Origin: Centroscyllium fabricii
Taxonomy: Eukaryota
Assembly (NCBI GenBank): GCA_051313645.2
Contig: JBNRSN020000015.1
Coordinates: forward strand, 105,524,001-105,588,000
Length of the DNA stretch: 64,000 nucleotides
Direction of reading: 5' to 3'
In this document: piece by piece, positions 3,361-56,170 of the stretch
How positions within the stretch are numbered: position 1 is the first letter of the stretch
Layout: every line of letters begins with the position of its first letter
Position numbers and translations under genes: made by a program
Notes under the pieces: generated by a model
Database searches by the model: none
Seen by the model: the letters and a program-made list of their open reading frames with translations, nothing else
Told to the model about the DNA's origin: nothing

Positions 3361-3445
3361 CATAGAATCATAGAAATTTTACAGTGCGGATAAGGGCCAT
3401 TCGGCCCATCCAGTCCGCACCGGCCCAGAAAAACTCCTCACTGTT

Positions 3446-6334
3446 CTAACCCCAGTTGCCCGCACCTGGCCCATAACCCTGTATGTTATGGTCCTTCATG
3501 TGCTGGTCCAAGTATTTTTTAAATGTTGTGATGGTTCCTGCCTCCACCACCCTCACAGGCAGGGAGTTCCAGTCTTCCACCACCCTCTGGGTAAAGAAAT
3601 TTCTCCTTACCTCCCCCCTAAACCTCCCCCCCCTGATCTTGAATCTATGTCCCCTAGTGCTTGACTCTCCCACCAGGGGAAACAATGCCCCTTTGTCTAC
3701 CCTATCGTGTCCCCTCATGATCTTGTACACCTCAATCATGTCACCCCTCCACCTTCTTTTTTCCAAGGCAAACAACCCCAGCCTGTCCAGCCTTTCCTCG
3801 TAGCATAGGTCCGCCAGACCAGGTATCATCCTGGTAAACCTTCTCTGCACCCTCTCCAGGGCAGCCACATCCTTCCTGTAGTGCGGTGACCAGAACTGCA
3901 CACAGTACTCCAGCTGAGGTCTCACCAGTGTGTTATACAGGTTTAACATTACCTCCCTACTTTTGTATACTATGCCCTGGTTAATAAAGGCGAGAATTCC
4001 GTATGCCTTCTTAACCACCTTGTTAACGTGTCCAGCAACCTTCAGGGAGCTGTGCACCTGTACCCCCAGGTCCCTCTGCTCCTCGGTCCTATTTAACGTT
4101 TTGTTGTTCATGGTATATTCCCTTACCCCATTTGGTCTACCGAATTGAATGACCTCGCATTTCTCTGGGTTGAACTCCATTTGCCATTTTTCTGCCCAAT
4201 TAACCATTATATCTATATCCTCCTGAAGCCCCTTACTATCCTCATCGTTGTTTACCACCCTTCCGATTTTCGTATCATCAGCGAATTTGCTGATCGTACC
4301 CCCTACTCCCATATCCAAATCGTTGATGTATACTAGAAACAGTAAGGGTCCCAAAACCGATCCTTGGGGGACGCCACTGGTTACTGGTTTCCAGTCACAG
4401 AAGCAGCCCTCTACCATTACCCTTTGTCTCCTATCCCCCAGCCAATTTTCGATCCACTGTGCCAAGTTACCCTGTATCCCGTGCGCTCTAACCTTTGTTA
4501 TTAGTCTCCTATGTGGGACTTTATCAAAAGCTTTGCTAAAGTCCATATACACTACGTCCACAGTACTCCCTTCATCCACCCTCTTTGTTACTTCCTCAAA
4601 GAATTCCAACAGATTGGTCAGGCACGACTTACCTTTGACGAAGCCATGCTGACTGTCTCTTATTAGACCTTGGTTGTCCAAATGCGAACTGATTTTTTCC
4701 CTCAGAATTTTTTCCATTACTTTCCCCACTACAGATGTAAGACTGATTGGCCTGTAGTTGCCTGGTTTGTCCCTACTACCCTTTTTAAACAAGGGTACTA
4801 CATTAGCCGTTCTCCAGTCCTCAGGCACATCCCCTGACGTGAGAGAGGTCCTGAAGATTTGGGACAGGGGGCCCGCAAGCTCCTCCCTGGCCTCGAACAG
4901 CAGCCTGGGGAACATTGCGTCCGGCCCTGGTGATTTGTCCACCTTTAAGCCTCCCAAGATTTCTAGAACTTCTTCCCTTGTAATGGTAATATCCTCAATT
5001 ACCCCCCCTACATTCTGTCCGATTTCGATGTCGGTATCGTCCCTCTCTCTTGTGAATACTGAAGAGAAGAATTCATTTAGTACCTCCCCCACCTCCTCAG
5101 GCTCGACGCACAGCTTTCCGCTATCGTCTTTAATGGGCCCCACCCTTTCCCTCGTGATCCTTTTGTTTTTTATATAACTATAAAATGCCTTAGGGTTATC
5201 CTTGATTTTACCGGCCATTGTAATCTCATGACCTCTCTTGGCTTTTCTTATCTCCTTCTTTAAATCCCCCCTATATTTCTTATACTCCCCTAGTGCCTCC
5301 TCAGTTTTTAGCCGTTTATATTCATTAAAAGCCCCCCTTTTTTTCTTCATTAATTTACATATATCTCGAGACATCCAAGGTTCCCTTTGTTTGTCTCCCC
5401 CACCCTTAATTTTTGCAGGAACATGTTCCTCCTGTATCTTCCCGACTTCCCCTCTGAAGACCTCCCACTGCTCTGATGCAGATCTTCCTCTGAGGAGATG
5501 GCCCCAATCTACTGCGGTTACATCGTTCCTAATTTTATTGAAATCCGCCTTCCCCCAGTTTAGTATTTTTACCCCTGGTCCATTTTTATCTTTCTCCATT
5601 ACAATTTTGAAACTAACTGAATTGTGGTCGCTATCCCCGAAGTGCTCCCCCACTGTTACCTCCTCTATCTGCCCGTCCTCGTTCCCAAGTATTAGGTCTA
5701 GTACCGCCCCCCCCCTTGTAGGTGACCCCACATATTGTTTCAAAAAATTATCTTGGCTGCATTGTAAGAATGCTGAACCATCCGTGCCCCTCACACTTTG
5801 ATTCTCCCAGTTGATATTGGGGAAATTAAAGTCCCCTAGTATTGTTACTTTATTATTTTCACTGATCTTCGTGATTTGTTCACATATCTTATCCTCTACC
5901 TCCCCTTTACTGTTTGGTGGTCTATAATATACTCCCAGTAAGGTGCCCCCCCCTTTTTTATTTTTTACCTCCACCCATAGTGCCTCGTTTGAGGATTCGT
6001 CCATTAGGTCAACCCGCCTAATGGCTGTGATTGAATCTTTAATCAGTATCGCTACCCCCCCTCCCCTTTTACCCTCGTCCCTGTCCCGCCTGAAAATTCT
6101 ATACCCCGGAATGTTTAGCTGCCATTCTTGCCCCTCTTTCAGCCACGTCTCCGTGATAGCTACTATATCATATTCCCATGAGTCAACCAATACCTTTAAC
6201 TCATCCACTTTGTTAGTTAGACTCCTTGCGTTAAAGTATATGCCTTTCATTCTCTGTCCTAAAACTACCTTGTTTTGCTGTCTAGTCTGCTTTCCTTTAT
6301 TAGGTTGTGTTCCCCTATCCATTATACCTTCCAT
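3446..6334 (-). CDS. CR1 ORF2: APE endonuclease + reverse transcriptase (962 aa)
   Basis: NARSL, ITETW, YRPP, GDFN, SDH (EN); [23 protein letters not shown] (RT). Confidence 0.97.
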   Translation of the reverse strand: MEGIMDRGTQPNKGKQTRQQNKVVLGQRMKGIYFNARSLTNKVDELKVLVDSWEYDIVAITETWLKEGQEWQLNIPGYRIFRRDRDEGKRGGGVAILIKDSITAIRRVDLMDESSNEALWVEVKNKKGGGTLLGVYYRPPNSKGEVEDKICEQITKISENNKVTILGDFNFPNINWENQSVRGTDGSAFLQCSQDNFLKQYVGSPTRGGAVLDLILGNEDGQIEEVTVGEHFGDSDHNSVSFKIVMEKDKNGPGVKILNWGKADFNKIRNDVTAVDWGHLLRGRSASEQWEVFRGEVGKIQEEHVPAKIKGGGDKQREPWMSRDICKLMKKKRGAFNEYKRLKTEEALGEYKKYRGDLKKEIRKAKRGHEITMAGKIKDNPKAFYSYIKNKRITRERVGPIKDDSGKLCVEPEEVGEVLNEFFSSVFTRERDDTDIEIGQNVGGVIEDITITREEVLEILGGLKVDKSPGPDAMFPRLLFEAREELAGPLSQIFRTSLTSGDVPEDWRTANVVPLFKKGSRDKPGNYRPISLTSVVGKVMEKILREKISSHLDNQGLIRDSQHGFVKGKSCLTNLLEFFEEVTKRVDEGSTVDVVYMDFSKAFDKVPHRRLITKVRAHGIQGNLAQWIENWLGDRRQRVMVEGCFCDWKPVTSGVPQGSVLGPLLFLVYINDLDMGVGGTISKFADDTKIGRVVNNDEDSKGLQEDIDIMVNWAEKWQMEFNPEKCEVIQFGRPNGVREYTMNNKTLNRTEEQRDLGVQVHSSLKVAGHVNKVVKKAYGILAFINQGIVYKSREVMLNLYNTLVRPQLEYCVQFWSPHYRKDVAALERVQRRFTRMIPGLADLCYEERLDRLGLFALEKRRWRGDMIEVYKIMRGHDRVDKGALFPLVGESSTRGHRFKIRGGRFRGEVRRNFFTQRVVEDWNSLPVRVVEAGTITTFKKYLDQHMKDHNIQGYGPGAGNWG

Positions 6335-6357
6335 CTGGGTCCCCTCCCCCTGCCAAA

Positions 6358-7314
6358 TTAGTTTAAACCCACCCCAACCCGGCTAGCAAACCTTCCCGCA
6401 AGGATATTGGTCCCCCTCTGGTTCAGGTGCAATCCGTCCTGCGTGTATAGGTTCCACCTTCCACAGAAGTAAGACCAATTATCCAAAAAGCTGAAACCCT
6501 CCCTCCTACACCAATCTCTTAGCCACGAATTAAGCTGCTCTATCTTACGGTTCCTGTACTCATTAGCTCGTGGCACTGGGAGTAATCCAGAGATTACAAC
6601 CTTTGGGGTCCTGCTTTTTAGCTTCTTACCTAGCTCCTTAAATTTACTTTGCAGGACCTCGTCCCCCTGTTTTCCTATGTCGTTGGTGCCAATGTGGACC
6701 ACAACTTCTACCTGGTCCCCTGCCCCCCTCAAGATGCCCTGCAGCCGCTCCGTGACATCCCGGACCCTGGCACCGGGGAGGCAAATAACCATCCTGGTGT
6801 CACGTCCGCGGCCGCAGAACCGCCTCTCTGTGCCCCTTACAATTGAATCCCCTATTACTACAGCTGGCACACTAGTTTCCCTCCCTTTCTGGGCAGCCCC
6901 AGCACCCCCAGTGCCTGGAGGTAGGCTGCTGCCGCCCTCCCCTGGTGGGTCGTCCCCCTCCACAGTATCCAAAGCGGTATACTTGTTGCTCAGGGGGACG
7001 GCCACAGGGGTTCCCTGCACTTCCTTCCTCGCTCTGGCCCTCTTCTTGGTGGTCAACCATACTTCTTCTAACTGGTCTGTTTTAGTCTTTGGTGTGACCA
7101 CTCTCTCATACGTGCTATCCACGACCCGCTCGTCGTTGCCCACGCTCCACAATGACTCCATCTGCCGCTCTAGCACCGTTATGCGGTCGGCTAAGAGCTG
7201 CAGATAGACGCATCTCCTGCATACGTGTTCATCAGGGGCCCCGGTTGGGTCCCTGAATTCCCACATGCTACATGTGGAGCATATGACTGCGACGGCCTGC
7301 ACTATGTCTCCCAT
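6358..7314 (-). CDS. CR1 ORF1: zinc finger/leucine zipper + SGNH esterase (318 aa)
   Basis: CSTCSM..CRRC; GDSIVRG, PGA, HIGTND, DGLHL blocks typical of the CR1 ORF1 esterase. Confidence 0.95.
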   Translation of the reverse strand: MGDIVQAVAVICSTCSMWEFRDPTGAPDEHVCRRCVYLQLLADRITVLERQMESLWSVGNDERVVDSTYERVVTPKTKTDQLEEVWLTTKKRARARKEVQGTPVAVPLSNKYTALDTVEGDDPPGEGGSSLPPGTGGAGAAQKGRETSVPAVVIGDSIVRGTERRFCGRGRDTRMVICLPGARVRDVTERLQGILRGAGDQVEVVVHIGTNDIGKQGDEVLQSKFKELGKKLKSRTPKVVISGLLPVPRANEYRNRKIEQLNSWLRDWCRREGFSFLDNWSYFCGRWNLYTQDGLHLNQRGTNILAGRFASRVGVGLN

Positions 7315-7489
7315 TTTTCTCTTAAATCCCTAGTAGACTTAGACTACTCTGTCTCTACTGTATCTCTGCTAAATTATAATAGGTATATATATATAGTTAT
7401 ATAGATATAGTTAAAGATATACTTACCGGTTACGTCTTATGTTCTTATGTTTCTTATGTTCTCCCACAAATAGTAATGTGATAATTAAA

Positions 7490-9020
7490 TAAGATTACAT
7501 AGGATACTGCACAGAAACAGGCCATTCCGCCCTTCCAGTCCATGCCGGTGTTTATGCTCCACTCGAGCCTCTTCCCGTCTTTCCTCATCTAAATCTAGCA
7601 GCATAACCCTTTATTCCATTCTCCCTTGTCCAGCCTCCCCTTAAATGCATCCATACTATTCGCTTCAACCACTCCCTGCGGTATCGAGTTCCACATTCTC
7701 ACCACTCTTTGGGTAAAGAAGTTTCTTCTGAATTCCCTATTTGATTTCTTGGTGACTATCTTATATTGATGGCCTCTAGTTTTGCTCTTCCCCACAAGTG
7801 GAAACATTCTCTCTGTATCCACTCTATCAAAACCTTTCATCATTTTAAAAAGACCTCTATTAGGTCACCCCTCAGCCGCCTTTTTTCAGGAGAAAAGAGA
7901 CCCAGCCTGTTCATCCTTTCCTGATATGTAGACCCTCACATTTCTGGTATCGTCCTTGTAAATCTTCTCTGCACCCTCTCCAGTGCCTCTATAATCTTTT
8001 TATAATAAGGTGACCAGAACCGTACGCAATACTCTAAGTGTGGTCTAATCAAGGTTCGGAACAGGTTTAGCATAACTTCCCTACTTTGCAATTCTGTCCC
8101 TCTAGAAATAAACCCTAGTGCTTGGTTTGCTTTTTATGGCCTTGCTAACCTGTGTCAGAACTTTTAGTATTCCTAGATCCTTTTGTTCCACTACCCCACC
8201 TAGACTCGCACCCTCCAAGTGATAAGTGACCTCTCTATTCTTCCTACCAACATGTAATATCTCACATATATCTGTGTTGAACTTCATTTGCCAATTATAT
8301 GCCTATTCTGCAAGTTTATTAATGTCCTCCTGTAACTTGTTGCAGTCCTCCTCGGTATTGACTATTCCCCTCCAATTTTGTGTCATCCGCAAGTTTAGAA
8401 ATTGTGTTTTTGATTCCTAAGTCTAAATCGTTAATGTAACTTGTGAACAGCATTGTTCCCAGCACTGATCCTTGTGAAACACCACGACCCACCTTCTGCC
8501 ACTGTGAATAGCTGCCTTTTATCCCTACTCTCTGCTTTCTGTCCTAATGCCAGCCAGCAATCCATTCTGTTACCTGTCCCCTGACTCCACATTCTCTGAC
8601 CGTGTTCATCAGTCTATTATGGAGTACCTTATCAAAGGCCTTTTGAAAATCCATAAATTACATCTACTGCATTACCATTGTCTACTCTCTCTGTTACCTC
8701 TTCAAAAAATGCAATAAGGTTGGTCAAGCAAGACTTTCCCTTTTGAAATCCATGTTGACTATTCATTATTATATTTTTTGTTTCTAGATGTTCTTCTATT
8801 TTCTCCATTAAGTTTCCTACCACCAATACTAAGCTGACTGGTCTATAATTTCCTGGACATGTTCTATCCCCCTTCTTAAATATCGGTATTACTCTGGCAC
8901 TATATCTTTTCTAACGAATTTTTAAAATGTATATTAATGCCTCTGCTATCTCTTCCCCAGATTCTTTTAAAATGCATGGATGCAATCTATCCGGACCAGG
9001 GATATTGTGCTCTTTCAAAT
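7490..9020 (-). mobile_element. Decayed CR1 ORF2/3' end (continues at 15613-15645 and 15972-16180)
   Basis: RT fragments [30 protein letters not shown]; ILNNYFASVFTRE near 16010-16060. Confidence 0.9.
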
Positions 9021-9997
9021 TGAGCGAGGAGCGAGGCCCAGAGCCCAGCGGCAGCGCCCGGGGAGCGGGACTTGGAGCGAGGCCCAGAGCCCAGCGGCAG
9101 CGCCCGGGGAGCGGGACTTGGAGCGAGGCCCAGAGCCCAGCGGCAGCGCCCGGGGAGCGGGACTTGGAGCGAGGCCCAGAGCCCAGCGGCAGCGCCCGGG
9201 GAGCGGGACTTGGAGCGAGGCCCAGAGCCCAGCGGCAGCGCCCGGGGAGCGGGACTTGGAGCGAGGAGCGAGGCTTCAAAAGGAGCAGCGGCGGCGGCAA
9301 AGGCCAGACCCGGGGAGCGGGACTTGGAGCGAGGAGCGAGGCCCAGAGCCCAGCGGCAGCGCCCGGGGAGCGGGACTTGGAGCGAGGCCCAGAGCCCAGC
9401 GGCAGCGCCCGGGGAGCGGGACTTGGAGCGAGGCCCAGAGCCCAGCGGCAGCGCCCGGGGAGCGGGACTTGGAGCGAGGCCCAGAGCCCAGCGGCAGTGC
9501 CCGGGGAGCGGGACTTGGAGCGAGGCCCAGAGCCCAGCGGCAGCGCCCGGGGAGCGGGACTTGGAGCGGGACTTGGAGCGAGGAGCGAGGCTTCAAAAGG
9601 AGCAGCGGCGGCGGCAAAGGCCAGACCCGGGGAGCGGGACTTGGAGCGAGGAGCGAGGCCCAGAGCCCAGCGGCAGCGCCCGGGGAGCGGGACTTGGAGC
9701 GAGGCCCAGAGCCCAGCGGCAGCGCCCGGGGAGCGGGACTTGGAGCGGGACTTGGAGCGAGGAGCGAGGCTTCAAAAGGAGCAGCGGCGGCGGCAAAGGC
9801 CAGACCCGGGGAGCGGGACTTGGAGCGAGGAGCGAGGCCCAGTGCCCAGCGGCAGTGCCCGGGGAGCGGGACTTGGAGTGAGGCCCAGAGCCCAGCGGCA
9901 GCGCCCGGGGAGCGGGACTTGGAGCGAGGCCCAGAGCCCAGCGGCAGCGCCCGGGGAGCGGGACTTGGAGCGAGGCCCAGAGCCCAGCGGCAGCGCG
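9021..9997 (+). repeat. GC-rich 46-bp tandem array with higher-order interruptions (CR1 5' end)
   Basis: Unit GAGCGAGGCCCAGAGCCCAGCGGCAGCGCCCGGGGAGCGGGACTTG; variant block GGCTTCAAAAGGAGCAGCGGCGGCGGCAAAGGCCAGAC occurs three times. Confidence 0.97.
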
Positions 9998-10082
9998 GGC
10001 TTTTTTCAAAGCCAGGGGGCAGGGCAAATCAATTGGAACCCGTATATAGGTGGAGCAGTTGCTAAACCAGAGACACTACACT

Positions 10083-11239
10083 TGTAACGGATTGGTGGAC
10101 AGATTGGGGGCGGGGCCCAAATGCAGAGACACTGAAACGTCCTTTAAAAGCAAAACTCCTTTAATATTTATATATAACAAAAACCACATAAATAGCATTC
10201 ACATACACAAATCTAGTAAACATCTTAAACAAGTCTTAGCTGAAGACTGGCACAGAACTTCCCAAAGTTGTGAGAAATGAGTAGAGGAATGCTACGCAGC
10301 AAAGCGCATCATTTACCCGAGGAATTCATGTCCAAACTTCTGTATAACAGGCATCAATGTCCATCTTAAACAAGTCTTCCTCAGTGAGCAGGACATCACA
10401 ATACAACTGCATCATCCGAGAACAGAACAAGTTTTCCTCTGCGAGCAGGACATCACAATACAACTCCTCATCAGAGAATTGAGGAACATCTTCTGTATAA
10501 CAGGCATCAATGTCCAAACCTGAGTTCGGGTGAAAATGAACCAAATGTCCAAGTAGTAGATTCTGAACTCTCCTCCGAGTCCGCCCTGCTGGTCGGGACT
10601 CACTCCGGCTGAGTCTTCAGAGGAAGAGAATACCTGATCCACAAGCAGGGGAACGCCCTTACTAAACATATGAATTGTCCATACCTGAACTGCAGAATAG
10701 CAGAGTGCAATGTCAAGGCTGAGTGATATGAGCTCCAACCCCATTGCCTCTGAAGCAGCCCAGCCTGAGCTGCAGGTGGCTGAACACAAGGTCCAGACTG
10801 ATGACAACTTGTAATTCACTGAAGTCTACTCAACAGCCAGTCTCACTCTAGCTGCCACAGCTAGTCTCACTCTAGCCGAGTCTTTCAAAGAGAATCCGTC
10901 CTCAATCGGGCAAGGGAAAGCCCAAACCCTTAGCCTCTCCAGCAGCACAGTAGCAGTAACCACTTCTTCCAGTGGCTTGTAGAATGTGTAAATGAAATCC
11001 AGCTAATTCAATGATGCCGCACCTGCCACATGCAAGACCTCCAGCTTATGAGCAAAACCAACAAATAGATCATTTGGGTTTAACCAACCAGCTGCAGGCA
11101 CTGACATAAAGCACACACAGGAATGAGAGCACCTAATTGAGGTAATAATAGAACTAACAGGGAAACCAGTCCTCAAAACAGGTGTGGAGCACACAACCAA
11201 ACTGTTTTAATATCTTAAAGGGACAGGCACCCTGTGACA
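10083..11239. mobile_element. Solo LTR (1157 bp)
   Basis: TGTAAC...GTGACA termini; 5-bp TSD ACACT (10078-82, 11240-44); no coding capacity. Confidence 0.85.
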
Positions 11240-11635
11240 ACACTAGTGTCTCCCACCCTTCCACCTCCTCTAACCTTTAGGGGTTGAGAGAATTTTTTTT
11301 AAAAAGGTAGGTGATTTATTGATTATTTTCAGAGACTGAACGTGAGTGGAAGGGGCTCCTGGACAGAGGTAGCAGTCGGTGGCAGCAGCAGGACCAGGGC
11401 AGGAGTTTTTCGCGGGTCTTTCTTTTCAGGAGCAGGCAGCGGGACGGTACTAGGAGGAGACAACAGGAGGCGGCGGCTATAAAGGCAAGCAGGGTAAGTG
11501 ATTTATTTATTTTTATTTATTTATTTTTCTGAGGTCTCTGTGGTATAACGGGGACTTCTGATAGACTAGCACCCTAGTATATATCTTGTTTTTTGGGGTG
11601 TTAATTTTTTGTAAAAGTAATTAGGGGGGTAAGTC

Positions 11636-12584
11636 ATGTCAGTGCAGCACGGTGCCGTGCTTTGCTCCTCCTGCCATGTGGGAAGCCAGGGACACCACTG
11701 GAGCCCCTGGTGGCCATGTGTGCGGGAAATGCGTCCACCTTCAGTTACTGACTAACCGCATTGCGGCACTGGAACTGAGGGTGGATGGGTTAGGGAGCAT
11801 TCGCAAAGCTGAGGGGAGCGTGAATTACTCATACAATGAGCTGGTCACACCGCAGGCTAAGGGTGTGCAGGCAGAAGAGGAATGGGTGACCAGCAGAAAG
11901 AACAGTAGGGCCAGGCAGGTAGAGCAGGAAACCCCTGCGGCCATCCCCCTCACGAACAAGTATACCGCTTTGGATACTGTTGGGGGGGACGACCTACCAG
12001 GGGAAAGCAGCAGTGGCCAACCTTCGGGCACTGAGGTTGCTTCTGCTGTTCAGCTGGGGGGGAAAAGGCATGAGAGAGCAATAGTGGTAGGGGACTCTAT
12101 CGTAAGGGGAGCAGATAGGCATTTCTGTGGCCGTAGACGTGACTCCAGGATGGTCTGTTGCCTCCCTGGTGCCAGGGTCAAGGATGTCACGGAACGGCTG
12201 CAGGACATCCTGCAATGGGAGGGAAACCAGCCAGAGGTCGTTGTACACATAGGAATCAACGACACACGTAAAAAGAGGGAGGAGGTCCTGCAACAAGAAT
12301 TCAGGGAGCTAGGCAGAAAGTTAAAGTGCAGGACCTCAAAGGTTGTAATCTCTGGATTACTCCCTGTGCCACGATTTAGTGAGTATAGGAATAGAAGGAT
12401 AGAGCAGCTTAATACGTGGCTCAAGAGTTGGTGCAGGAGGGAGGGCTTTAGTTTCCTGGATAACTGGCCCTGTTTCTGGGAAAGGTGGGACTTGTATGGG
12501 GGCGACGGTCTCCACCTTAACCGGAAGGGGACCAATATCCTGGTGGGGAGGTTTGCTAGCATGGTTGGGGAGGGGTTAAACTAA
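11636..12584 (+). pseudogene. CR1 ORF1 (SGNH esterase), probable frameshift near the start
   Basis: CGKC, GDSIVRG, HIGIND, DGLHL; clearly homologous to 6358-7314. Confidence 0.9.
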
Positions 12585-15518
12585 CTTGGCAGGGGGATGG
12601 GATAGGTAGTGGAAAAGAGGGAGGTCATAGGAAGCCAGAAACAAATGGTAGGAAGGTGAGAAACAATAAGCAAGGGAGAGAAACACAAAGGGCCAAACAA
12701 ATTCATAATAGTGTGATCAAAACAAGCCTAAAGGCAAGAAGCATTAGGAACAAGGTGGATGAACTAGCTGTGGAAATAGAGGTAAGCAAATATGAGCTGA
12801 TTGGAATTACGGAAACATGGCTGCAGTGGGGGCAAGGCTGGGAACTCAACATCCCGGGGTATACAACATTCAGAAAGGATCGGCACAAAAGAAAGGGAGG
12901 TGGGGTGGCATTGCTGGTGAAAGAGGGGATAAATGCAATTGAAAGGAAGGATATTAGCTCAGATGATACGGAATCTATATGGGTAGAACTAAGAAATAGT
13001 AAAGGGCGGAAAACATTAGTGGGAGTTATATACAGGCCTCCAAATAGTAATATGGAGGTGGGGGACGGCATAAAAAGGGAAATTAGAGAAGCTTGCGATA
13101 AGGGCACAGCTGTCGTCATGGGCGACTTTAATCTACATATTGATTGGACTAGCCAAGTTAGTAAAAATAGTGAGGAGGAGGAATTCCTAGAATGTCTACG
13201 GGATGGGTATCTGGACCAATATGTCGAGGAACCAACTCGGGATCAGGCCATCTTAGACTGGGTATTGTGCAATGAGAAGGGACTAATTAACAATCTCGTT
13301 GTACGAGGCCCCTTGGGTCGGAGCGATCATAATATGATCGAATTCTCAGTTGAGATGGAAAGTGAAAAGATCAACTCAGAGACTAAGGTCCTGAATTTAA
13401 ATAAAGGGAATTATGAAGGTATGAGAAGGGAATTAAGCAAGATAGATTGGGCAGTGTTCCTGGGGGGATTGAATGTGGATAGACAATGGCAAGCATTCAA
13501 GTATAGGATGGAAGAAATACAGAACTCGTTCATACCGGTTTGGCATAAGAATAAACCTAGAAAGGTGACTCAACCGTGGATAACAAGGGAAATAAGGGAC
13601 AACATTAAATCCAAAAAATGGGCATATCAATTGGCCAAAAAATTACTAGGCCGGAAGATTGGGAGCAGTTCAGGATACAGCAAAGGAAGACAAAGGGATT
13701 AATCAGGAGGGGGAAGATAGATTATGAAGGGAAGCTTGCGGCAAACATAAAAACTGACTGCAAAATCTTTTATAGGTACATCAAGAGGAAAAGATTGGTA
13801 AAATCACAAGTCGGTCCCTTGCAGTCCGATTCAGGGGAATATATAATGGGGAATAAAGAAATGGCAGACCAACTAAACTCATATTTTGGTACTGTCTTCA
13901 CAAAGGAGGACACAAGCAATCTCCCAGGGATAGCAGCGAACATAGGGTCCAAGGCAAGGGAGGAGCTGACAGATATCATTATTTCTAGGGAGATGGTTTT
14001 GGGGAAGTTGAAGGGATTGAAGGCCGACAAATCCCCAGGGCCTGATAATCTACATCCTAGGGTACTTAAAGAGGTAGCCCCGGAAATAGAGTGTGCATTG
14101 AGGATCATTTTCCAGAACTCAATAGACTCTGGATCAGTACCCACAGATTGGAGGGTGGCTAATGTTACCCCACTCTTTAAAAAGGGGGGCAGAGAGAAAG
14201 CAGGGAATTATAGACCAGTAAGCCTTACATCAGTAGTGGGCAAAATGCTCGAGTCCATCATCAAGGATGTAATCTCGGAGCATTTGACAAGTAGGGATGA
14301 GATCGGACAGAGTCAACACGGGTTTACAAAAGGTAAATCATGTTTAACTAATCTATTGGAATTCTTTGAAGAAGTAACTCGGAAAATAGATGGCGGAGAG
14401 CCAGTAGATGTGGTGTACCTTGACTTCCAGAAAGCTTTCGATAAGGTCCCACATAAAAGATTAGCATGTAAAATTAAGGCTCATGGGATTGGGGGCAAAG
14501 TTTTGATGTGGATAGAGAACTGGTTGGCAGACAGAAAACAGAGAGTTGGAATTAACGGCTCCTTTTCTGAGTGGCAGTCGGTGACTAGTGGAGTACCGCA
14601 GGGGTCTGTCCTGGGACCTCAGCTGTTTACAATATATATTAATGATCTGGATCAGGGAATTGAATGTAATATCTCCAAATTCGCGGACGACCCAAACTAG
14701 GAGGGGGGGCAGGCTCTGAAGAGGGTGTCAGGAAGCTACAGGGCGATTTGGATAAGTTGGGGGACTGGGCAGATAGATGGCAGATGCACTATAATGTGGA
14801 TAAATGTGAGGTTATCCACTTTGGGGGCAAAAACAGGAGGGCAGATTACTACTTAAATGGCAGTAGATTGGGAGATGGGGAGGTGCAGAGAGACCTAGGT
14901 GTTCTTGTACACCAGTCGCTGAAGGCGAGCACGCAGGTGCAGCAGGCGGTTGGGAAGGCAAATGGTATGTTGGCCTTCATATCAAGAGGGTTCGAGTATC
15001 GGAATAAGGATACCTTACTGCAGCTGTACAAGGCACTGGTGAGACCACACCTCGAGTATTGTGTACAGTTCTGGTCGCCTCGCCTGAGGAAGGATGTTCT
15101 TGCCATGGAAGGAGTGCAGCGGCGTTTCACCAGGCTGATTCCTGGAATGGCAGGAATGACCTACGAGGAGAGATTGTGTAGTCTGGGCTTGTACTCGTTG
15201 GAGTTTAGAAGATTGAGAGGCGATCTCATTGAGACGTATAAAATTCTGAAAGGTCTGGACAGGCTAGATTCAGAGAGAATGTTTCCAATGACGGGGGAGT
15301 CCAGAACCAGGGGCCACAGTCTAAGGATAAGGGGTAAACCATTTAGGACAGACATGAGGAAGAATTTCTTCACTCAGAGAGTGGTGGGCCTGTGGAATTC
15401 CCTGCCACAGAGGGCGGTGGAGGCCAGTTCATTAAACATATTCAAGAGGGAATTGGATATATTTCTTCAAGCTAAAGGGATTAAAGGTTATGGAGAAAAG
15501 GCGGGGACGGGGTACTAG
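12581..15518 (+). pseudogene. CR1 ORF2 (EN-RT) with two frameshifts
   Basis: EN and RT motifs spread over three ORF pieces; breaks near 13640 and 14695. Confidence 0.93.
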
Positions 15519-26650: not shown

Positions 26651-29600
26651 TGTAGGGAACGGCAGTCCCCTACTCTTCGAAATCGAGAATAACGTCGAGG
26701 GATGCGGAGCAAACGTAAACAGGTCTTTATTGGTTTCGATCCAGAAACAACTGAGTTACAAAAGGCGCGAAAACGCAAAGCATGATGGTGCTTTTGACGG
26801 ACAGCCCACAGGACCAATCAGGGACCGGAACTGTTGATCCAACTAACCAATGGGGAAACAGGGGCGGGACAAACTCTGGAATGTGGATTCTAACTCTTTG
26901 GGGAGATCAGGATGTCTCCCTCTAGTGGCTCTGCTACATACGCCCCTTTAGAATCCGCATGGACATGATAAGTCAACCTCCGAGGAGGCATGACGAGATA
27001 GCCGCTATGAGTGCAATAGGCCGCCGGTGCAGGGGGCGCTAGCGACAAGCCGTGAACAGGACTGGAGGGCGGCTTTTCCGCAGGAGTGAGGGGCAAGACT
27101 GGAGAGCAATCCAGATGCAGAGCAAGAGGTGGAGCCGTACACGAGGGTCTAATTAATGCGGGACCCGCTGGTGGCACGTTTGGGACAAAGAAATGCTCCT
27201 GGCGCGCGACCCGGGGAAACTGTTCAGGCGAGACAGGGTCCAAATGGACAGGTTTAAGCCGGTCAATGGAAACGCTGTCCTGTCGGCCCCCAACCGCGAG
27301 GAGAAAATACTTGTCCACAGCCTCTAGCACCCTGAAAGGGCCAGTACAAGGCACCTGTAAAGGGGTTCTGTAGGCATCACGAAGCACAAAAACAAATTGT
27401 GCCCGTCGGAACTCAGCGAGTACGTGGGACGACCGGGCCCCGAACCGAGAGGTGGGCACAGGAAGGAAACGATGCGTAGCGTCGTTGTGCCGAGCGAGCT
27501 GCTCGCCGGCTGACCAATTCTCGGTGACGGAGGGGAGGAACTCTCCCGGAATGCGCAAGGGTTGTCCAAACACGAGTTCGGCGGAAGACACGCCGAGGTC
27601 ATCCTTGGGGGCGGGGCGTAATCCCAGAAGGACCCAAGGGAGTCTGTCCAACCAGTTGGCGTCGACCAGGCTAGCATGAAGTGAGGCCTTGAGGGCGCGG
27701 TGGAACCGCTCGCAAATACCGTTTGCCTGCGGATGATAAGCAATCATGCGGTGCAACTGCGTCCCCAGGCCAGTGGCGATTGCGCTCCACAGCTGGGAGG
27801 TAAACTGTGGGCCCCTGTCAGAGGTGAGGTCCGACGGAACCCCAACCCGGGCCACCCATGAAGAAATAAAGGCGCGTGCCACATCAGCCGAAGTGGTGGA
27901 AGCAAGGGGTACGACCTCCGGCCACCTGGTAGTGCAGTCCACGATGGTAAGGAGATGGGTAAAACCCTGTGATGGGGGCAAGGGGCCAACCAAATCAACA
28001 TGAACATGATTGAACCGCCGCTCGGGCACCGGAGAATTTTGCAGGGGAGCCTTAGTGTGCTGATGGACCTTAGCGCGTTGGCAGTCCTGGCAGGTGTTAG
28101 TCCAGTTCCGCACATCTTTATGTAGGCCTGGCCAGACAAATTTGGTGGACATGAGCTTCTGAGAAGCTTGCATGCCCAGGTGTGAGAGCCCATGGACCAA
28201 ACCAAAAACGTGCTTGCGCCAGGAGGTGGGCACTAAGGGCCTAGGGGTGGGAACGGAAACGTCACACAAGAGGGGCGTGCCGGCTGCCTGAAAATGAACA
28301 TCCGCTAGGGTCAGGCTGGTGGATGCAGAACGAAGAGCCTGCAGCTCGGAGTCTGCCCGCTGGGCGCGTGCCATCTCTGCGTAATCAACACCAACGTGGA
28401 CCGTGTGGATGGAAGGACAGTAGAGGCAGTCGGCAACGACATTATCCTTACCAGACACGTGACGAATGTCCGTAGTAAATTCTGAAATTAAATTCAGGTG
28501 GCGCTGTTGGCAACCTGACCAGGGTTCTGTGACCTTGGACATGTCAAAAATGAGGGGCTTATGGTCCACGTAAGCAGTGAACGGATGGCCCTCCAAGAGA
28601 AAACGATAGTGCCGCAATGCAAGAAAAAGAGCTAGCAGTTCCCGGTCGAACGTGCTATACGAAAGCTCACTGTTCCACAGTTGGCGGCTAAAAAATGTGA
28701 GGGGTTGCCAGGCACCGTCAACCCATTGTTGCTGAACGGCGCCAATTGCATGATCCGAGGCATCCATCGTGAGCGACAGTGGAGCGCCTGGGATGGGGTG
28801 GGTCAAAAGGGTGGCTTCGACCAGGGCTGACTTAGCGAGGCTAGATCTTGCCCCTGGTGGTCTCGTATGGGGGCACATGATGGAGGTGGCCCTGGGAATG
28901 AACTGGTGATAAAAATGTACCATTCCCAGAAATTCCTGGTGTGCCTTAACCGTGCTGGGCTGGGGAAAATCTGTGACCGCTTTGACTTTAGAGGGTAAAG
29001 GGATGGCTCCCTTCTGCAAGGCCGAATTGGCATTTAACTGGGTTTACATTTAGGCCATGTTGGGCCAATCTCTGAAAAAGAGAATGCAAATGCACAATAT
29101 GTTGAGATTCATCCACGCTGGCAACCAAAATGTCATCGAGATATAGAAATAAAAAGTCCAAGTCCCGAAGGACAGAGTCCATCAACCGTTGGAAAACCTG
29201 TGCCGCATTCTTTAAGCCGAAGGGCATACGTAGGAATTTGAAAAGTCCAAAAGGGGTAATCATTGCCGTCTTTTGGACGTCGTCCAGATGGACCGGGACC
29301 TGGTGGTATCCTCGGATGAGGTCGACTTTTGAAAAAACTGTTTTACCCGCCAAATGTGCCGAAAAGTCTTGAATGTGTGGCACCGGGTATCTGTCCGGCG
29401 TGGTGGCGTCATTGAGGCACCTGTAGTCGCCGCACGGTCTTGGGGACGATGTGGAGCGGGGACAACCACAGGCTGTTCGAAGGATGAATGATCCCCAACT
29501 TCTCCATGGCCGAGAATTCCTGCTTGTTGACCGCCACCTTTGTGGGGTCGAGGCACCTGGCTCGAGCGAACACTGGTGGGCCAGTCGTGGCAATGTAATG

Positions 29601-31092
29601 TCGGACGCCATGTTTGGCCGCCACCTCGGAAAAGGTCAGCTGTGTAATGGTCAGGAACCCGGCCAGTAGGCGCGCATATTTATTGCGAAGACGAGGAGAG
29701 CAGGAGCCCACGAGGGGTTGGCTGTCGCTCCACTGGCAGGGCAGGGAGGTAAAGGTAGACGCGTCCATGAGGCGTCTGCCCCGGACGTCCACGGGCAGGC
29801 CATGGGCACACAGGAAATCCGCGCCCAGCAATGGATGTTCCACATTGGCTGTAACGAAATCCCAGGTGAACCGTTGGCCACCCAGGCGAATCTCCGCCTG
29901 CCGTTTTCCTAAAGTGGCTATGGCTGCGCCATTCACCGCCACGAGGGGTGGGCCACTGCGGCCTGCTTGTCGATCGAGCTGCCTAGCTGGTAGAATGCTA
30001 CATTGAGCCCCGGTGTCTCGGAGGAACTTTTGTCCAGAAAGTGAGTCCATGACGTACAGCAGCTTTCCCGCTGTGCCAATGGCGTTAGCTGTGGCTGGGC
30101 CCTGGTGGCGGTGCGGGGTCGGAGTGTGGGGTTTGGGCACAACCTATTTGCCGTCGAATAAACCAGGTGGTCGGCAGCGATGAGCCTCCGGGCTGAAACG
30201 TGCATGGTAATAACAGAGTCCCGGCTGGGGTTGAGGCATTGCCCACTGCATAGGGGCTGCAAGCCTCGCGGATGCACAGTTAGTGGGTGCACAAAGGCAA
30301 ACACGGTCCACGATGGAGGCCAACTCGGCGTAGGTCCCGCCTCTAACGTTTGCTAAAGCCGATTGCACAGGCTGTGGGAGCAGACTGATGAATAGCGCCC
30401 AAAACAAAGGACAGTCTTTGTGGTCCCTGAGGAGGGCTAGCATGCAATTCATCAGGCGCGTAGGCGTGGAGTCGCCTACGTCTGATAGTTCGAGCAGTTG
30501 CCAGGCCCTTACATCTTCCGGTAAGTCGTGAGCCTGGAGCAGTTAGATCTTAACGGCAGCGTACCTGTTAGTTTGAGGCGGGTCCCACAGCAGGTCCACG
30601 ATGTCGGCGGCAACATAGCTAGGCAGAGCCAAAACAACGAGGCGCTTGAGCAGGAACTGGGCCTCTGTTTCCAAAAATCAAAAGGCTGCATGGTGCTCCC
30701 AAAAGGCGGGGAGGCTGATAGTCGACGGTCTTTCGCTTTGCCCGGCCTCGGGGCTCGCCTTCTGGTCAGCACCTTTTGGGTCTGATCATGTCGGCGTCAC
30801 CAATTGCAGGGAACGGCAGTCACCTACTCTTCAAAATCGATAATAACGTCGAGGGATGCGGTGCAAACGTAAACAGGTCTTTATTGGTTTCGATCCAGAA
30901 ACGACTGAGTTACAAAAGGTGCAAAAACGCAAAGCATGATGGGGCTTTTGATGGACAGCCCACAGGACCAATCAGGGACCGGAACTGTTGATCCAACTAA
31001 CCAATGGGGAAACTGCGGCGTGACCAACTCTGGAATGTGGATTCTATCTCTTTGGGGAGATCGGGATGTCTCCCCCTAGTGGCTCTGCTACA
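26651..31092 (-). mobile_element. Full-length Gypsy LTR retrotransposon, CsRn1 clade, decayed gag-pol
   Basis: 288-bp LTRs 26651-26938 and 30805-31092 (about 94% identical by eye); TSD GTCT; tRNA-Trp-like PBS TGGTGACGCCGACATGAT; PPT; CYYHARF..C gag motif, DTGA, YLDD, RNase H, integrase. Confidence 0.95.
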
Positions 31093-34183: not shown

Positions 34184-35760
34184 ACTAATTTCCCATTTAA
34201 TGCCACCCCCAACCTCAGGATTACTGTTTGGGGGTCTGTATACAACTCCCACTAACATTTTCTGCCCTTTGGTATTTCTCAGCTCTACCCTGCTCTACCC
34301 ATACAGATTCCACATCATCAGAGCTACTATCCTTCCTTACTATTGTGTTAATCTCCTCTTTAACCAGCAATGCTACCCCACCTCATTTTCCTTTTTGCCT
34401 GTCCTTCCTGATATTGAATAACCCTGGATGTTGAATTCCCAGCCTTGGTCACCCTGGAGCCATGTCTCCGTAATTACAATTACATCATATCCTTTAACAT
34501 CTATTTGCACAGCTAATTCATCGACCTTATTATGAATGATCCTCGCATTAAGACACAAAGACTTCAGGCTTGTTTTTTTAACACTATAGTCCTTTTAGAA
34601 TTGTTATTTACTGTAGCCCTGTTTGAATTACACCCTTGATTTCTCTGCCTTCCACTTTTGCTTTTCTCTTTCCTGTCTTTTGTTTCTATCTTTGCTTCCC
34701 TTTCCTCTGTCTCCCTGCACAGGTTCCCAACCCCCTGCCATTTTCATTAAAACCCTCCCCAACAGCACTAGCAAACACTCCCCCTAGGTGATTGGTCCTG
34801 GTCCCTCCCAGGTGCAAACCATCCAGTTTTTGCTTGTCCCACCTTCCCTAGAACTGGTTCCAATGTCCCAGGAATTTGAATCCCTCCCCCTCGCACCATT
34901 CCTCTAGCCACATATTCATCTGAAATATCCTTCTATTTCTACTCTGACTAGCATGTGGCACTGGTAGCAATCCTGAGATTACTACCTTTGAGGACCTATT
35001 TTTTAATTTACCTCCTAACTCCCTATATTCAGCTTTTTGGACCTCATCCCATGTTTTTACCTATATCGCTGGTAACTATATGCACCATGACAACTGGTTG
35101 TTCACCCTCCCCTTCCAGAATGCCCTTCAGCCCCCCGAGACATCCTTGAGCCTTGCACCTGGGAGCCAACATACCATCATGCAGTCTTGTTTACGGCCGC
35201 AGAAACACCTATCTATTCCCCTTACAATAGAATCCCCTATCACTATAGCTCTCCCAGTCTTTTTCCTCCTGTTCTGTGCAGCAGAACCACCCATAGTGCC
35301 AGGAAGCCTTCCCCCGATAAGCCATCCCCCTCAATAATATCCAAATTGGTATATCAGTTTGAGAGGGGGATGGACACGGGGACCCCTGCAATACCTGCCT
35401 GCAACTACTCCTCTGCCTGGTGGTCACCCATTCCCTTCCTGCCTGTGCAGCCTTTACCTGTGATGTGACCTACTCCCTAAACATGTTATCCACGATGTCC
35501 TCAGCATCGCAAATGCTCCAGTTTGTATCGATTTGCAGCTTCAGCGCCGCAATACAGTCTGTCAGTAGCTGCAGCTGGATACACTTCCTGCACATATGCT
35601 CATCAGGGACACAGGAAGTGTCCCTGTGTTCCCACATAGCACAGGAGAGCATGCCACGGGGCCAAGCTGTCCTGCCATGACTTACCCTTTAATTAATTTA
35701 AATTAATTTAAATCAAATCAATATCACCACTTACACGACAATTAAATTAAACTCAAGGAC

Positions 35761-36094: not shown

Positions 36095-39000
36095 TGTGGC
36101 GGCACGCCCACTGGGACACCGAATCCGCCACGGGAACTCCGCGGAGCAGAGCCCCGCTCATCCGGGTGACGCGACGACGTCACCACGTCTGCCTGCGTGA
36201 TGACGTCACCAACGGCAGGCAGTTTAAATAAGCTTGTTGCGAGTGGTTCACTCTCGTTTCTGTTTAACTCTTATGCATTAAACAAGTGTTTTCTCTAGCT
36301 CTCTGGCTCACGCGTGGTTTCTAGGCCTTGCTGGCGCTACAGTGGTGACCCCGACGAGATCAATGTGGACGTGGTCAAAGCGTCTGGCCGGCACTTTAAA
36401 TGTTTCCAGCGGTGCCCTGATGTGCTTGTGCACTTTGGAGCGCTGGCAGGCAATGCAGGCGTTGGCCCAGGCGCGGACGTCTTTGCGCAGGCCGCGCCAT
36501 ACGAACCGGGCCGAGATAAGTTTAATGGACGCGCGGGTGCCGGGGTGGGACAGGTCATGGAGGGTCTTGAAAATGTGTCACCTCCAAGCGTGGGGGACAA
36601 CGGGCCTGGGCTGCGGCAGGGACACGTCGCAGCAGACGACGGTGGCAGCGGGGCCGTGCGCGATATTGGCCAAGTGGAGGCCGGGGAGATTTGCTGCTGA
36701 GTTGAGCAGGTCAGGGTCGGCCAGCTGGTCAGCGGCCAGCTGGGCGTAATCGACCGCCATTTGGGCGGCGTTAATGGTGGGGCGTGAGAGGCAGTCAGCG
36801 ACCACGTTGTCGCGGCCGGAGATATGCTGAATGTCGGTCGTAAATTCCGACACGGCCGCGAGTTGGCGCTGCTGCCTGGCCGACCAGGGTTCGGCGACCT
36901 TAGCCATCACGAAGGTGAGTGGCTTATGGTCGACGAAGGCTGTGAAGTGGCGGCCCTCCAGGAGGAAGCGAAAATGTCGCACTGCCAGATGGAGAGCGAG
37001 GAGCTCCCTATCGAAGGCGCTGTACTTGACCTCTGGGGGCCGGAGTTGCCGGCTGAAAAAGGCCAGGGGCTGCCACGAGTTGCCGGTCCACTGCTCAAAT
37101 ACGGCCCCGACCGCGTGGTCGGAGGCGTCGGTGGTGAGGGCTACTCTGGCATTGGGCCTAGGGTGGGCTAGGAGGGTGGCGTTAGCCAGGGCGGTTTTAG
37201 TTGCGGTGAAGGCGGTGGCGGCGTCGGCCGTCCACTCAACCGCAGCCTTGTTCGACTGCCCGCGAGTGGCCTGGTATAAGGGGGCCATGAGAGCGGCTGC
37301 TCCCGGGATAAAGCGGTTATAAAAATTGACCATCCCCAGAAATTCCTGCAGCCCCTTAATGGAGTGCGGGCGGGGAAATTCCTGGACCGCCTGCACCTTG
37401 GAGGGCAGGGGTATGGCCCCGGTTTGGGAAATGCGGTGGCCGAGAAAGTCAATGGTTTGGAGGCCGAATTTACACTTGGTAGGGCTTAATATTAGGCCGT
37501 GTTCGACCAGGCACTGGAACAGGGTCCTGAGGTGCAGGAGGTGTTCCTGGGGGGAGGTGCTGGCCACGAGGATGTCGTCTAAGTAGACGAAGATGAACTT
37601 CAGGTCCCGTAGGACCGAGTCCATGAGGCGCTGGAAGGCCTGGGCCGCGTTTTTAAGGCCGAAGGGCACCCTGAGAAACTCGAAGAGTCCAAAGGGAGTG
37701 ATAACGGCCGTTTTAGGAATGTCCGCCGGGTGCACCGGAACCTGGTGGTAGCCACGCACCAGGTCGATTTTGGAGAAGATCGTGCAGCCCGCTAATCTGG
37801 CAGAAAAATCCTGGATGTGGGGTACGGGGTACCTATCCGGGGTGGTGGCGTTGTTTAGGCGGCGGTAGTCGCCACAGGGGCGCCAACCCCCGTCCGGCTT
37901 GGGGGCTATGTGGAGAGGAGAGGCCCAGGGGCTGTTGGAGCGGCGGATTATACCGAGTTGCTCCATGGTGCGGAACTCGGTGCGCGCAATCTCCTGTTTG
38001 GCCGGGTCAAGCCTACGGGCGTGGGCATGGACGGTAGGGCCTGTGGTAGTTATAAAATGTTCCACCCCGTGTTTGGCCTGGCGGGCGGTGAACGTGGGGT
38101 TGGTTAGGGCGGGGAACTCTGCTAGGAGTGTGCCGTAGGCATCGGAGTTCCGAGAGCGGCATTGGGCGGCCGCGTGGGCCAGGAGTGCGGGCCCTGTGAA
38201 GCATGGGATGGTCGACATGTTATTCATGTTGACCAAGCGGCGCCGGGTCATATCGACCAGCAGGCCGTAGGCGCAGAGGAAATCTGCTCCGAGGAGGGGT
38301 GAAGTGACCTGCGCTGTGACAAAGTCCCAGGTGTACCTGTGGCTTGCAAGCGTAATCGTGAGTTTGCGGGTGCCGTACGTTTTGATATTGGAGCCATTGG
38401 CCGCTGCGAGTGGCGGGCCCCGGGTGCCTTGTTTGGTTTCTGCAGGGGAGGCTGGCACGATGCTGTGCTGTGCGCCTGTGTCGCAGAGGAATTGGAGGCC
38501 TGTGCCGCTGTCTGTAACAAAGAGCAGTGCTCCTGTGTGTCCTACAGACATAGTGGGGGCTGAGGTGGGCCGTGGCTTAAATGCGCATGGCTCGACGCAG
38601 CGGTGCGCTTTGCTATCGAACCGCGTGTGGTAGTAGCACCAGCTGGTGCTAGAGGGACGCGGTTGCCTCGGTGGGCGCGGGGCCCTAGTTTCAGGCATGA
38701 AGTTGGCCCTGGGGGGCGATTGGTTGCGCTCTATGGATGCGGAGTTAGGGTCGCACGTGGTTGAGCGGGTGCGCTGTGCCTCCATGAGCCTGTCGGCCTC
38801 CTCAGCGAGCTCGTCGTTGCTCCGCTGGCCGAGGGCCGGCCAAGGCCGGCCTGATGGAGCGGGGTAGTTTGAGGAGGAAAACGGTGCGGAACAGGGAGGC
38901 GGGATTGGCGGTGAGCGCTTGCATCTGACGTAAAAGGTCTGATGGGTCTGCGTCCCCGAGTTCGGGGAGGTCAAGGAGCTGGCAGTCGCGCTCGAATTGA

Positions 39001-55083: not shown

Positions 55084-56170
55084 ATGGCGGTGCAGGTGGT
55101 GTACTGCAACTACAGTATATGGGAGCTTGTGGAGAGCATCTCAATCCTGGAGAACCACATCTGCAGTAAATGCCTGCATCTCAAGGAGCTTTAGCTCAGA
55201 GTTGTTGAGCTGGACTCTGAGGTGCAGACATTGCGGGGCATCAGGAATGGGGAGAGTTACCTGGACACTTTGATCCAGGAGGAAGTCACAGCCCTTAGGT
55301 TAGGTAGTGGTACAGGTCTGGTTTCTGGTCAGGGACAGGAGGGTGTTACTGCGACTCAGGCAAGTAAGAAGACCTCAGGTGCAGTGTTGTAGGAGCCTCG
55401 GTCTTTGCCCTTATCCAACAAGTACAAGGTTCTTGCTGCCTATGTGGATGAAGGCACCATTTGCAGGGTGGATGAGCAAACTGACCACTGGACCATGATA
55501 CAGGAGGCCATTCAAGTGGGGGGGAGTGACAGGTAATGTAGTTGTGGTAAGGGACAGTATAGTTAGGGGGAGAGATACTCTTCTCTGCAGCCACGACCGG
55601 GAGTTCCGAAGGTTGTGTTACCTGCCCAGTGCCAGGGTTAAGGACATCTCCCTGTGGCCGGAGAAAAACTTGAAGTGGGAGTGGGAGGATCCAGTTGTCG
55701 TGGCCCCCGTAGGAACCAACAACATAGGTAGAACTAGGAATGAGGTTCTGCTGAAAGAGTTTGAGGAGCTAGGGTCCAAATTAAAATGAAGAACCTCACA
55801 GGTAATAATCTGTGGATTGTTACTTGAGCCATGCGCAAATTGTCATAGGGACAAGCAGATTACAAGGTTAAATGCATGGCTGAAAGAGTGGTGTGGGTGG
55901 AAGAGGTTTTGATTCATGGGGCACTGGCACCAGTTCTGGGGAAAGTGGGAGCTTTTCCATTGGGACGGGCTCCTCCTAAACTGGGCTTAGACCAGCATCC
56001 TGGCAAATCAAATAACTAGGGCAGTAGATAGGGCTTTAAAGTAATGGAGGGGCAGGGCGGGTGGGTGGATTCAGGAAAGGATAAATTCAAAATCAGTAAG
56101 AGAAAAGTCAGGCTGTAGAGCAGAGTAGCAATTTGGGTCAGGAAAGGACAGAGAGCTGTTAGAAACTAGG
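55084..56170 (+). pseudogene. Decayed CR1 ORF1 (esterase) and ORF1/ORF2 junction
   Basis: VVVVRDSIVRG, LPSARVKD, VGTNN, DGLLLN. Confidence 0.85.

Follow-up and report, generated by a model that had tools for sequence, protein, structure and literature searches.

A conserved slippery heptamer ahead of the ORF1 stop in esterase-bearing CR1 elements of a shark genome points to -1 frameshifting as the probable route to their endonuclease-reverse transcriptase

The 64,000-nucleotide stretch of the Centroscyllium fabricii genome analyzed here (assembly GCA_051313645.2, contig JBNRSN020000015.1, positions 105,524,001 to 105,588,000; hereafter the window) contains a retrotransposon of the CR1 type, a long interspersed nuclear element (LINE), in which both open reading frames (ORFs) are intact: ORF1, and an ORF2 for endonuclease and reverse transcriptase (EN-RT). 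It is the junction of these two frames that concerns us. The parts of this element, copy 1 of family 1, are as follows.

3361..7434, minus strand: CR1 copy 1, ending in ATTCTATG repeats and 5'-truncated about 120 nt ahead of ORF1
6358..7314, minus strand: ORF1 of 318 aa, with its ATG at 7314, a Cys motif, a coiled coil, an SGNH esterase and a C-terminal Leu-Asn
6361..6367, minus strand: U_UUA_AAC, the slippery heptamer, in frame with ORF1, whose last codons are GGT TTA AAC TAA
6358..6360, minus strand: ORF1 stop UAA, adjoining the heptamer (UAA or UAG in 18/18 of the lineage copies described below)
6341..6354, minus strand: G element GG-CA-G5-A-G4, with G5 at 6350-6346, a candidate stimulator
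6233..6361, minus strand: -1 frame linker from the slip site to the endonuclease, 43 codons in copy 1
3446..6361, minus strand: ORF2 (EN-RT), 971 codons counted from the slip site, giving a predicted fusion of 1,289 aa

The ORF1 product matches Pfam Lipase_GDSL_2 (PF13472, E 1.5e-16) and, by profile, the ORF1 esterase of ZfL2-1 (4C1B, E 5e-42), and ORF2 carries Exo_endo_phos (PF03372, E 3.6e-13) and RVT_1 (PF00078, E 3.8e-35). The repeats ending at 3361 fit the 3' tail of ATTCTRTG-type repeats that we take to be a CR1 feature. By this content copy 1 is a CR1-group LINE with an esterase ORF1 and an ORF2 of apurinic/apyrimidinic endonuclease (APE) type plus reverse transcriptase, the endonuclease tree having been built from loci of this genome and bird-type loci. 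Family 1 is very young: a 271-nt junction query gave 834 candidates, and 40/40 of the scored genome matches were 100% identical. Among the copies L001-L030 the 5' ends vary, which fits the 5' truncations of CR1. In the -1 frame, open from 6382 to 3446, copy 1 reads LIWQGEG ahead of its AUGs at 6334, 6322 and 6250, and after the heptamer a GG follows at 6 nt (6354) and G5 at 10 nt. These coordinates agree with the preliminary description of the window, made from its letters, which had placed the heptamer directly ahead of the ORF1 stop with ORF2 in the -1 frame and a G-rich tract about 6 nt downstream, and had cautioned that the intact copy has AUGs compatible with reinitiation. The word TTTAAAC is found no more than 7 times in the window, counting the two strands together, and the match at the junction exceeds chance.

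Junctions were located across the genome with an esterase profile from which the last (LN) columns had been removed, so that they were found independently of the motif; the sequence scanned was 1.06 Mb of DNA sampled without a target, plus 60 loci retrieved with distant esterase queries. Eighty junctions were recovered, one interrupted by another insertion and one deleted, and the 78 locatable sites comprise 59 T_TTA_AAC, 14 G_TTA_AAC, 2 T_TTA_AAT and 3 decayed sequences, with TAA next in 71. The untargeted sample taken by itself has T_TTA_AAC in 16/20 junctions, and a later junction set has the motif in 30/31. Two further families, f60 and f49, which came from downstream-sequence sampling, show T_TTA_AAC in 10/18 and 12/19 junctions, with 2 and 1 further loci that have lost the junction, and here the G variants accompany an expanded upstream G run. 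That run, ahead of the heptamer in f60 and f49 (L322-L361), is extremely variable, reaching about 18 G, and often moves ORF1 in or out of frame, which may reflect microsatellite instability or long-read error.

Together with 10 added loci (2 siblings of families 1 and 2, and 8 loci from metagenome contigs), the 80 junctions fall into 21 clusters on flanking sequence. Where the first endonuclease motif could be located, it is in the -1 frame in 58/76 copies, and this frame is the most frequent one in 15/15 clusters that have an endonuclease, narrowly so in two decayed ones (4/8 and 7/14). The distance from the heptamer to the endonuclease Asn ranges from 39 to 85 codons across lineages, yet the -1 frame prevails.

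To compare codons we used a lineage set of one real copy for each of 19 clusters, bird-type ones among them, leaving out two decayed singletons and counting two rows that are close kin. The last Leu of ORF1 is TTA in 19/19 of these lineage copies, vs. 12% of the 375 Leu codons elsewhere in ORF1; the second invariant Leu, that of GLHL, is written with four different codons, none of them TTA; the last Asn is AAC in 18/19. The codon preceding the last Leu encodes 8 amino acids, and its third base is T in 16 copies and G in 3. Synonymous sites have evidently turned over, because neighboring invariant residues show varied codons, and the constraint at the junction is at the RNA level, in the X_XXY_YYZ pattern. 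The junction codons thus behave as the earlier proposal of a frameshift signal implies, with TTA fixed and the third base of the preceding codon constrained. A shuffle test for open frames (product 3e-11) was set aside as inflated by the selection of open copies.

The start of ORF2 was examined in the same families. No AUG precedes the endonuclease Asn in f79 (family 2, to which a second copy in the window belongs), f49 and f10. Of 29 f79 copies, 24 have their first AUG at codon 164, and it lies ahead of the Asn in 0/29; codon 164 is beyond the endonuclease motifs N-A-R-S, E-T-W and Y-R-P-P, which by analogy with L1 endonuclease have catalytic roles. Family f79 is fully intact in 3/5 extended copies (L277, L285 and L287; ORF2 of 986 codons, first Met 164), and f10 in 2 copies (ORF2 of 958 codons, first Met 58, endonuclease Asn 43). 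The endonuclease portion upstream of the first f79 AUG is under purifying selection, with a ratio of nonsynonymous to synonymous substitution rates (dN/dS) of 0.12-0.20; the linker has a dN/dS of about 1 yet stays open. Near the stop, 18 lineage copies divide into 3 with an in-frame AUG, 10 with an out-of-frame AUG only and 5 with none. A conserved ORF2 AUG had been named beforehand as something that would count against frameshifting, and across the families there is none. A conserved AUG at the stop together with an upstream tethering motif, as in reinitiation of the SART1 or calicivirus type, was likewise not found in these 18 copies.

The signal extends beyond this genome. Eight bird-type loci from the metagenome contigs, typed by their likeness to the stork gene models P0073-P0075, have T_TTA_AAC_TAG in 8/8, and the G run is present in all 7 that are long enough; the distant locus L081 has G_TTA_AAC_TAG with ORF2 in -1. 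Among named ORF1 proteins the nearest come from sharks and rays. A C-terminal LN is found in 47/68 ORF1 homologues (rays, sharks and frogs, with three named frog proteins), and a snake protein and a gene model from a monitor lizard have it too. Among the best 150 representatives of 50% clusters, the tail is visible in 126, and 116 end within 21 residues: 65 in LN, 10 in GN, 2 in KN, 1 in FN and 38 otherwise, with an internal LN frequency of 0.3% and a small bias since the query profile included the LN columns. The LN enders have tails of 6-20 residues. The residue ahead of LN is E, Q, K, M or W, which have no T-ending codon, in 1/65 vs. 15% nearby (P 2.5e-4; P 0.004 on 47 distinct tails). The GN enders form a well-supported clade of their own in a quick tree, some members of which end otherwise; Q precedes GN in 13/18, a residue lacking a G-ending codon never does (P ~0.02), and two proteins of this clade end in S-K-N. 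The Q-G-N clade fits a swap to G_GGA_AAC and S-K-N one to A_AAA_AAC. A review names four heptamers as the shiftiest, and U_UUA_AAC, G_GGA_AAC and A_AAA_AAC are among these four (PMC5009743). The single-frame esterase-EN-RT protein P0070 continues as YLKLVGQGG at the point at which its siblings end in YLN, and it lacks a Met ahead of the endonuclease, which indicates the -1 phase in that lineage. The signal is absent from the more distant esterase elements L097, L101 and L102. Overall the heptamer and the -1 phase, whose conservation the preliminary description had asked after, are kept in young families, sharks, bird-type elements and one distant lineage.

Three observations concern the edges of this range. 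In L097 (1320-1340, plus strand) ORF1 and the endonuclease frame are in the same phase, separated by one UGA followed by CUA, a known readthrough context; this is possibly a second route to an esterase-EN-RT fusion, and with a Met 36 codons further on reinitiation is possible as well. A subgroup of the Q-G-N clade (P0265, P0204, P0173, P0269, P0270 and P0271) ends in F-F-x or G-F-L-G, endings that would fit U-rich slippery sites. P0007, a CR1 ORF1 of shark type filed as a Pseudomonas aeruginosa SGNH hydrolase, is probably host contamination.

What is observed directly is a heptamer in frame and adjoining the stop, an open -1 frame, a fixed G5 and no conserved AUG; slippage itself we infer. Our reading is that CR1 LINEs with an esterase ORF1 probably make their EN-RT as an ORF1-ORF2 fusion by programmed -1 frameshifting at U_UUA_AAC, as had been suggested beforehand, and the conserved heptamer, phase and codon pattern and the lack of a conserved AUG speak for it. 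Most ribosomes would terminate at UAA or UAG and release the ORF1 protein (ORF1p), while a minority would slip on UUA/AAC and go on translating, first ...G-L-N-L-I-W-Q-G, then a linker that is basic and evolves fast, and finally EN-RT; for copy 1 the product would have 1,289 aa. Slippage would in this way fix a low ORF2:ORF1 ratio and attach EN-RT to the ORF1p multimer. A wider version can be put forward tentatively, in which elements from sharks to frogs, squamates, birds and invertebrate-type lineages would make ORF2 only as a fusion by slippage, the heptamer being swapped between U_UUA_AAC, G_GGA_AAC and A_AAA_AAC, and the G-tract would be a new natural stimulator acting through a bound protein (from the host, or ORF1p in feedback) or a G-quadruplex.

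The stimulator is the least certain part of this mechanism. The G run begins 10 nt past the heptamer in 15/18 lineage copies and at 7-9 nt in the rest; three of its positions are invariant in 18/18, two bases and then GGG usually come after it, and it spans codons for different amino acids across lineages. Among the own-genome copies, G5 is intact at the same offset in 66/78. If frameshifting occurs, a protein bound to the single-stranded G-tract as a roadblock is a plausible stimulator by analogy, if somewhat short of an even chance, and it is ranked first because the fixed 10-nt spacing comes closest to that of protein-activated viral sites; hnRNP H/F, which bind G-tracts, are a lead. A two-tier G-quadruplex is a more doubtful candidate: it is in the predicted structure of 10/18 copies, starting 6 nt downstream in most of those, and it is not predicted in family f16 or in most bird-type copies. 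Slightly less credit goes to a pause at the stop codon alone, and a long-range duplex is the least likely of the four. For the latter, a C-rich stretch about 620 nt upstream, encoding P-L-x-N-K/R-Y/F, could form 8-10 bp with the G-tract in 8/15 lineage copies; its mismatches are uncompensated and the bird-type copies reach only 6-7 bp, and it was kept as a weak lead only. In the window this motif lies at about 7010-6975 (minus strand), and most shark families have C-ending codons there.

Several points weigh against frameshifting or against the strength of its support. The 80 nt after the heptamer fold no better than shuffles in 18 copies (z -1.7 to +1.6), and neither a hairpin or pseudoknot 5-9 nt downstream nor a shared helix was found in the 18 lineage copies, by folding that cannot represent pseudoknots and in a region nearly free of C for pairing. 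The lineages are related, so their counts are not independent draws, and the copies were chosen for open frames, which inflates the shuffle test of those frames. Linker AUGs are in frame in 7/10 shark families, at codons 11-44, and in 4/8 loci of the bird type an AUG in the ORF2 frame comes two bases past the stop, so that reinitiation is possible in families with linker or stop-adjacent AUGs. As many as 51/116 protein representatives end other than in LN, the heptamer swaps of the Q-G-N clade are read from proteins, and P0070 is a single copy that may be a sequencing error or a private genomic insertion. The viral contigs and plasmids searched yielded no DNA for the Q-G-N or the Y-L-N clade, and matches in GTDB were bacterial esterases or one short fragment only. 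The argument from AUG-less families is also weakened by L1, whose ORF2 is thought to initiate independently of AUG (PMC5009743).

Such initiation leads to the rival that deserves most attention, termination at UAA or UAG followed by a restart close by and in the -1 frame, on an AUG if present and on a non-AUG codon if not, with a separate ORF2 protein; the conserved bases would then act as a signal for reinitiation. There are precedents in the unusual initiation of L1 ORF2 (PMC5009743, PMC5381506) and in the UAAUG of SART1 (PMC3708506); reinitiation likewise requires an open frame near the stop, and the AUG after the UAG of half the bird-type loci suits it. What it does not predict is a heptamer phased to ORF1 as X_XXY_YYZ, the T at an otherwise variable codon, or the swap to Q-G-N. 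No codon fit for a start is conserved either: the -1 codons after CUA are ATA, AGT, GTA, AAA, ATT, ACT, GAC, GGT, GCT and GAT, those that follow are equally varied (TGG, CGC, GGC, GCG, ATG, TCG and GTG), and only the 3/18 lineages mentioned have an in-frame AUG near the stop. UGGGA, which we assume to be a motif like the termination upstream ribosome-binding site, occurs within 100 nt upstream in only 8/18 and is absent from copy 1. We therefore consider reinitiation unlikely as the general explanation, and it may act alongside frameshifting in bird-type families.

The remaining alternatives seem to us far less probable still. The LN end might be a feature of the ORF1 protein, such as a C-terminal binding or folding motif, whose codons are kept by descent while ORF2 starts at linker AUGs; LN is indeed kept C-terminally over the tails of 6-20 residues and most shark families have a linker AUG, but synonymous sites are saturated at neighboring invariant residues and fixed at the junction, the amino acid ahead of LN varies where its third base does not, and three families without a usable AUG keep their endonuclease under purifying selection, so there is very little to recommend it. 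We give as little weight to a spliced or subgenomic RNA for ORF2 in which CTAA(C/T)...CAG|G would serve as branch point and acceptor. Most families do have GTAAGT-type donors in the 5' untranslated region (UTR), and the majority of shark families have CAG|G after the stop; the putative branch point, however, is about 7 nt from the AG, which conflicts with the known limits on branch-point distance, there is no pyrimidine tract, the AG is absent in 3/18 lineages, and a spliced RNA would still need the AUG that three families lack and would leave the heptamer unexplained. DNA contigs of three sequencing runs yielded nothing on splicing. Slippage of RNA polymerase or of the element's reverse transcriptase, adding one base at T3A3 in some of the transcripts or copies and producing in-frame templates, is the most improbable of all: P0070 carries just such a one-base fusion and the G run upstream often has indels, but T3A3 is short, an extra A in the heptamer is seen in 0/78 own-genome junctions, and the junctions of young copies do not differ from one another.

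The donor-like sites in the 5' UTR are an observation in their own right. Of 12 copies that include a 5' region, 10 contain GTAAGT or GTGAGT, which in four of the 10 lies 7 nt ahead of the ORF1 AUG; such sites are present in the window at 7426-7421 (minus strand) and at about 11632-11637 (plus strand), just ahead of the family-2 ORF1. These sites could serve leader splicing or U1 binding.

Three further CR1 junctions lie in the window.

11625..15518, plus strand: CR1 copy 2 (family 2), with an ORF1 frame at 11625-12584 and a broken ORF2 from 12560, AUG-less ahead of the endonuclease
12575..12596, plus strand: junction of copy 2, G_TTA_AAC (a private G) and TAA, with G5 at 12592-12596
34730..34751, minus strand: junction of copy 3 in decayed form, with changes to the heptamer (TTTAATG at 34751) and to the stop, G5 kept
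56035..56044, plus strand: decayed junction of copy 4, TTTAAAG TAA

Family 2 is nearly as young as family 1 (99-100% identity, 2,297 candidates). Its copy 2 reads LTWQGDG in the -1 frame and has its first in-frame AUG at 13052, within the endonuclease; 15 nt are missing at the endonuclease start and ORF2 is broken further on. The G_UUA_AAC, the -1 reading and the late AUG reported earlier for this copy stand, while the suggestion that it represents a second slippery site does not hold as a state of the family, for 29/29 other fetched members have T_TTA_AAC and the variant is mostly decay. The traces that decayed copies had been said to keep are there in copies 3 and 4. Elsewhere in the window, a GC-rich tandem repeat at 8911-10087 lies within a decayed CR1 and has several frames open on both strands, and Gypsy-like long terminal repeat (LTR) frames, recognized by eye from protease, reverse transcriptase and integrase motifs and some of them broken, occupy 26890-30542, 36282-39016, 45667-49831 and 60445-61167.

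CR1 is a dominant LINE in many vertebrates, and reviews regard the way in which LINE ORF2 is translated as an open question (PMC3894237, PMC5381506), to which the 25-nt junction offers a directly testable answer. If frameshifting is real, the CR1 "ORF2p" would be an esterase-EN-RT fusion of about 1,290 aa, in which an esterase or lipid function travels with the reverse transcriptase; annotations that begin ORF2 at its first AUG would remove catalytic endonuclease residues; and as a natural stimulator the G-tract would be out of the ordinary, a 2016 review knowing no natural G-quadruplex case and only viral cases of protein activation (PMC5009743). Our literature search found no report of CR1 frameshifting, and since the original CR1 descriptions were outside its coverage an earlier remark is quite possible. 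What is proposed, as far as the sequences allow, is a known mechanism in a new element group and with a non-canonical stimulator.

Frameshifting by -1 has a precedent among LINEs, as a review states that TRE5-A and TRE3-A of Dictyostelium need it for ORF2 (PMC5911963, figure legend); like CR1, these are APE-type non-LTR elements with two ORFs, but they belong to another host and LINE group and have an unrelated ORF1. A frameshift is also noted for the gag of HeT-A (PMC5009743). ZfL2-1 (PDB 4C1B) and the CR1/L2 LINEs share the SGNH esterase ORF1 and the APE and reverse transcriptase of ORF2, and the paper on them does not mention frameshifting (PMC3905857). L1, SART1 and the LINEs bearing 2A have the same need, to make little ORF2p from one bicistronic RNA (PMC3894237), and meet it differently, by AUG-independent initiation, UAAUG stop-start and ribosome skipping, with no -1 fusion described in the portions available. 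The closest parallels in layout are retroviral gag-pol (Rous sarcoma virus) and nidovirus ORF1a/1b (U_UUA_AAC in infectious bronchitis virus, G_UUA in equine arteritis virus), where the heptamer ends the upstream ORF and the polymerase is in -1 at a low ratio, as predicted here, and U_UUA_AAC is among the shiftiest sites (PMC5009743). Unlike those sites, the CR1 junction is followed by a purine-rich unstructured tract rather than a hairpin or pseudoknot, the element is of the non-LTR kind, and its fusion would contain no protease. In this respect it recalls protein-activated viral sites, which have spacers of 11-14 nt, and above all nsp2 of PRRSV (the virus behind porcine reproductive and respiratory syndrome), where nsp1beta and a poly(C)-binding protein act through the single-stranded motif CCCANCUCC at 11 nt, compared with G5 at 10 nt in CR1 (PMC5009743); the CR1 tract is of G and not C, its binding protein is a hypothetical one, and its site is a U_UUA_AAC at the end of the ORF.

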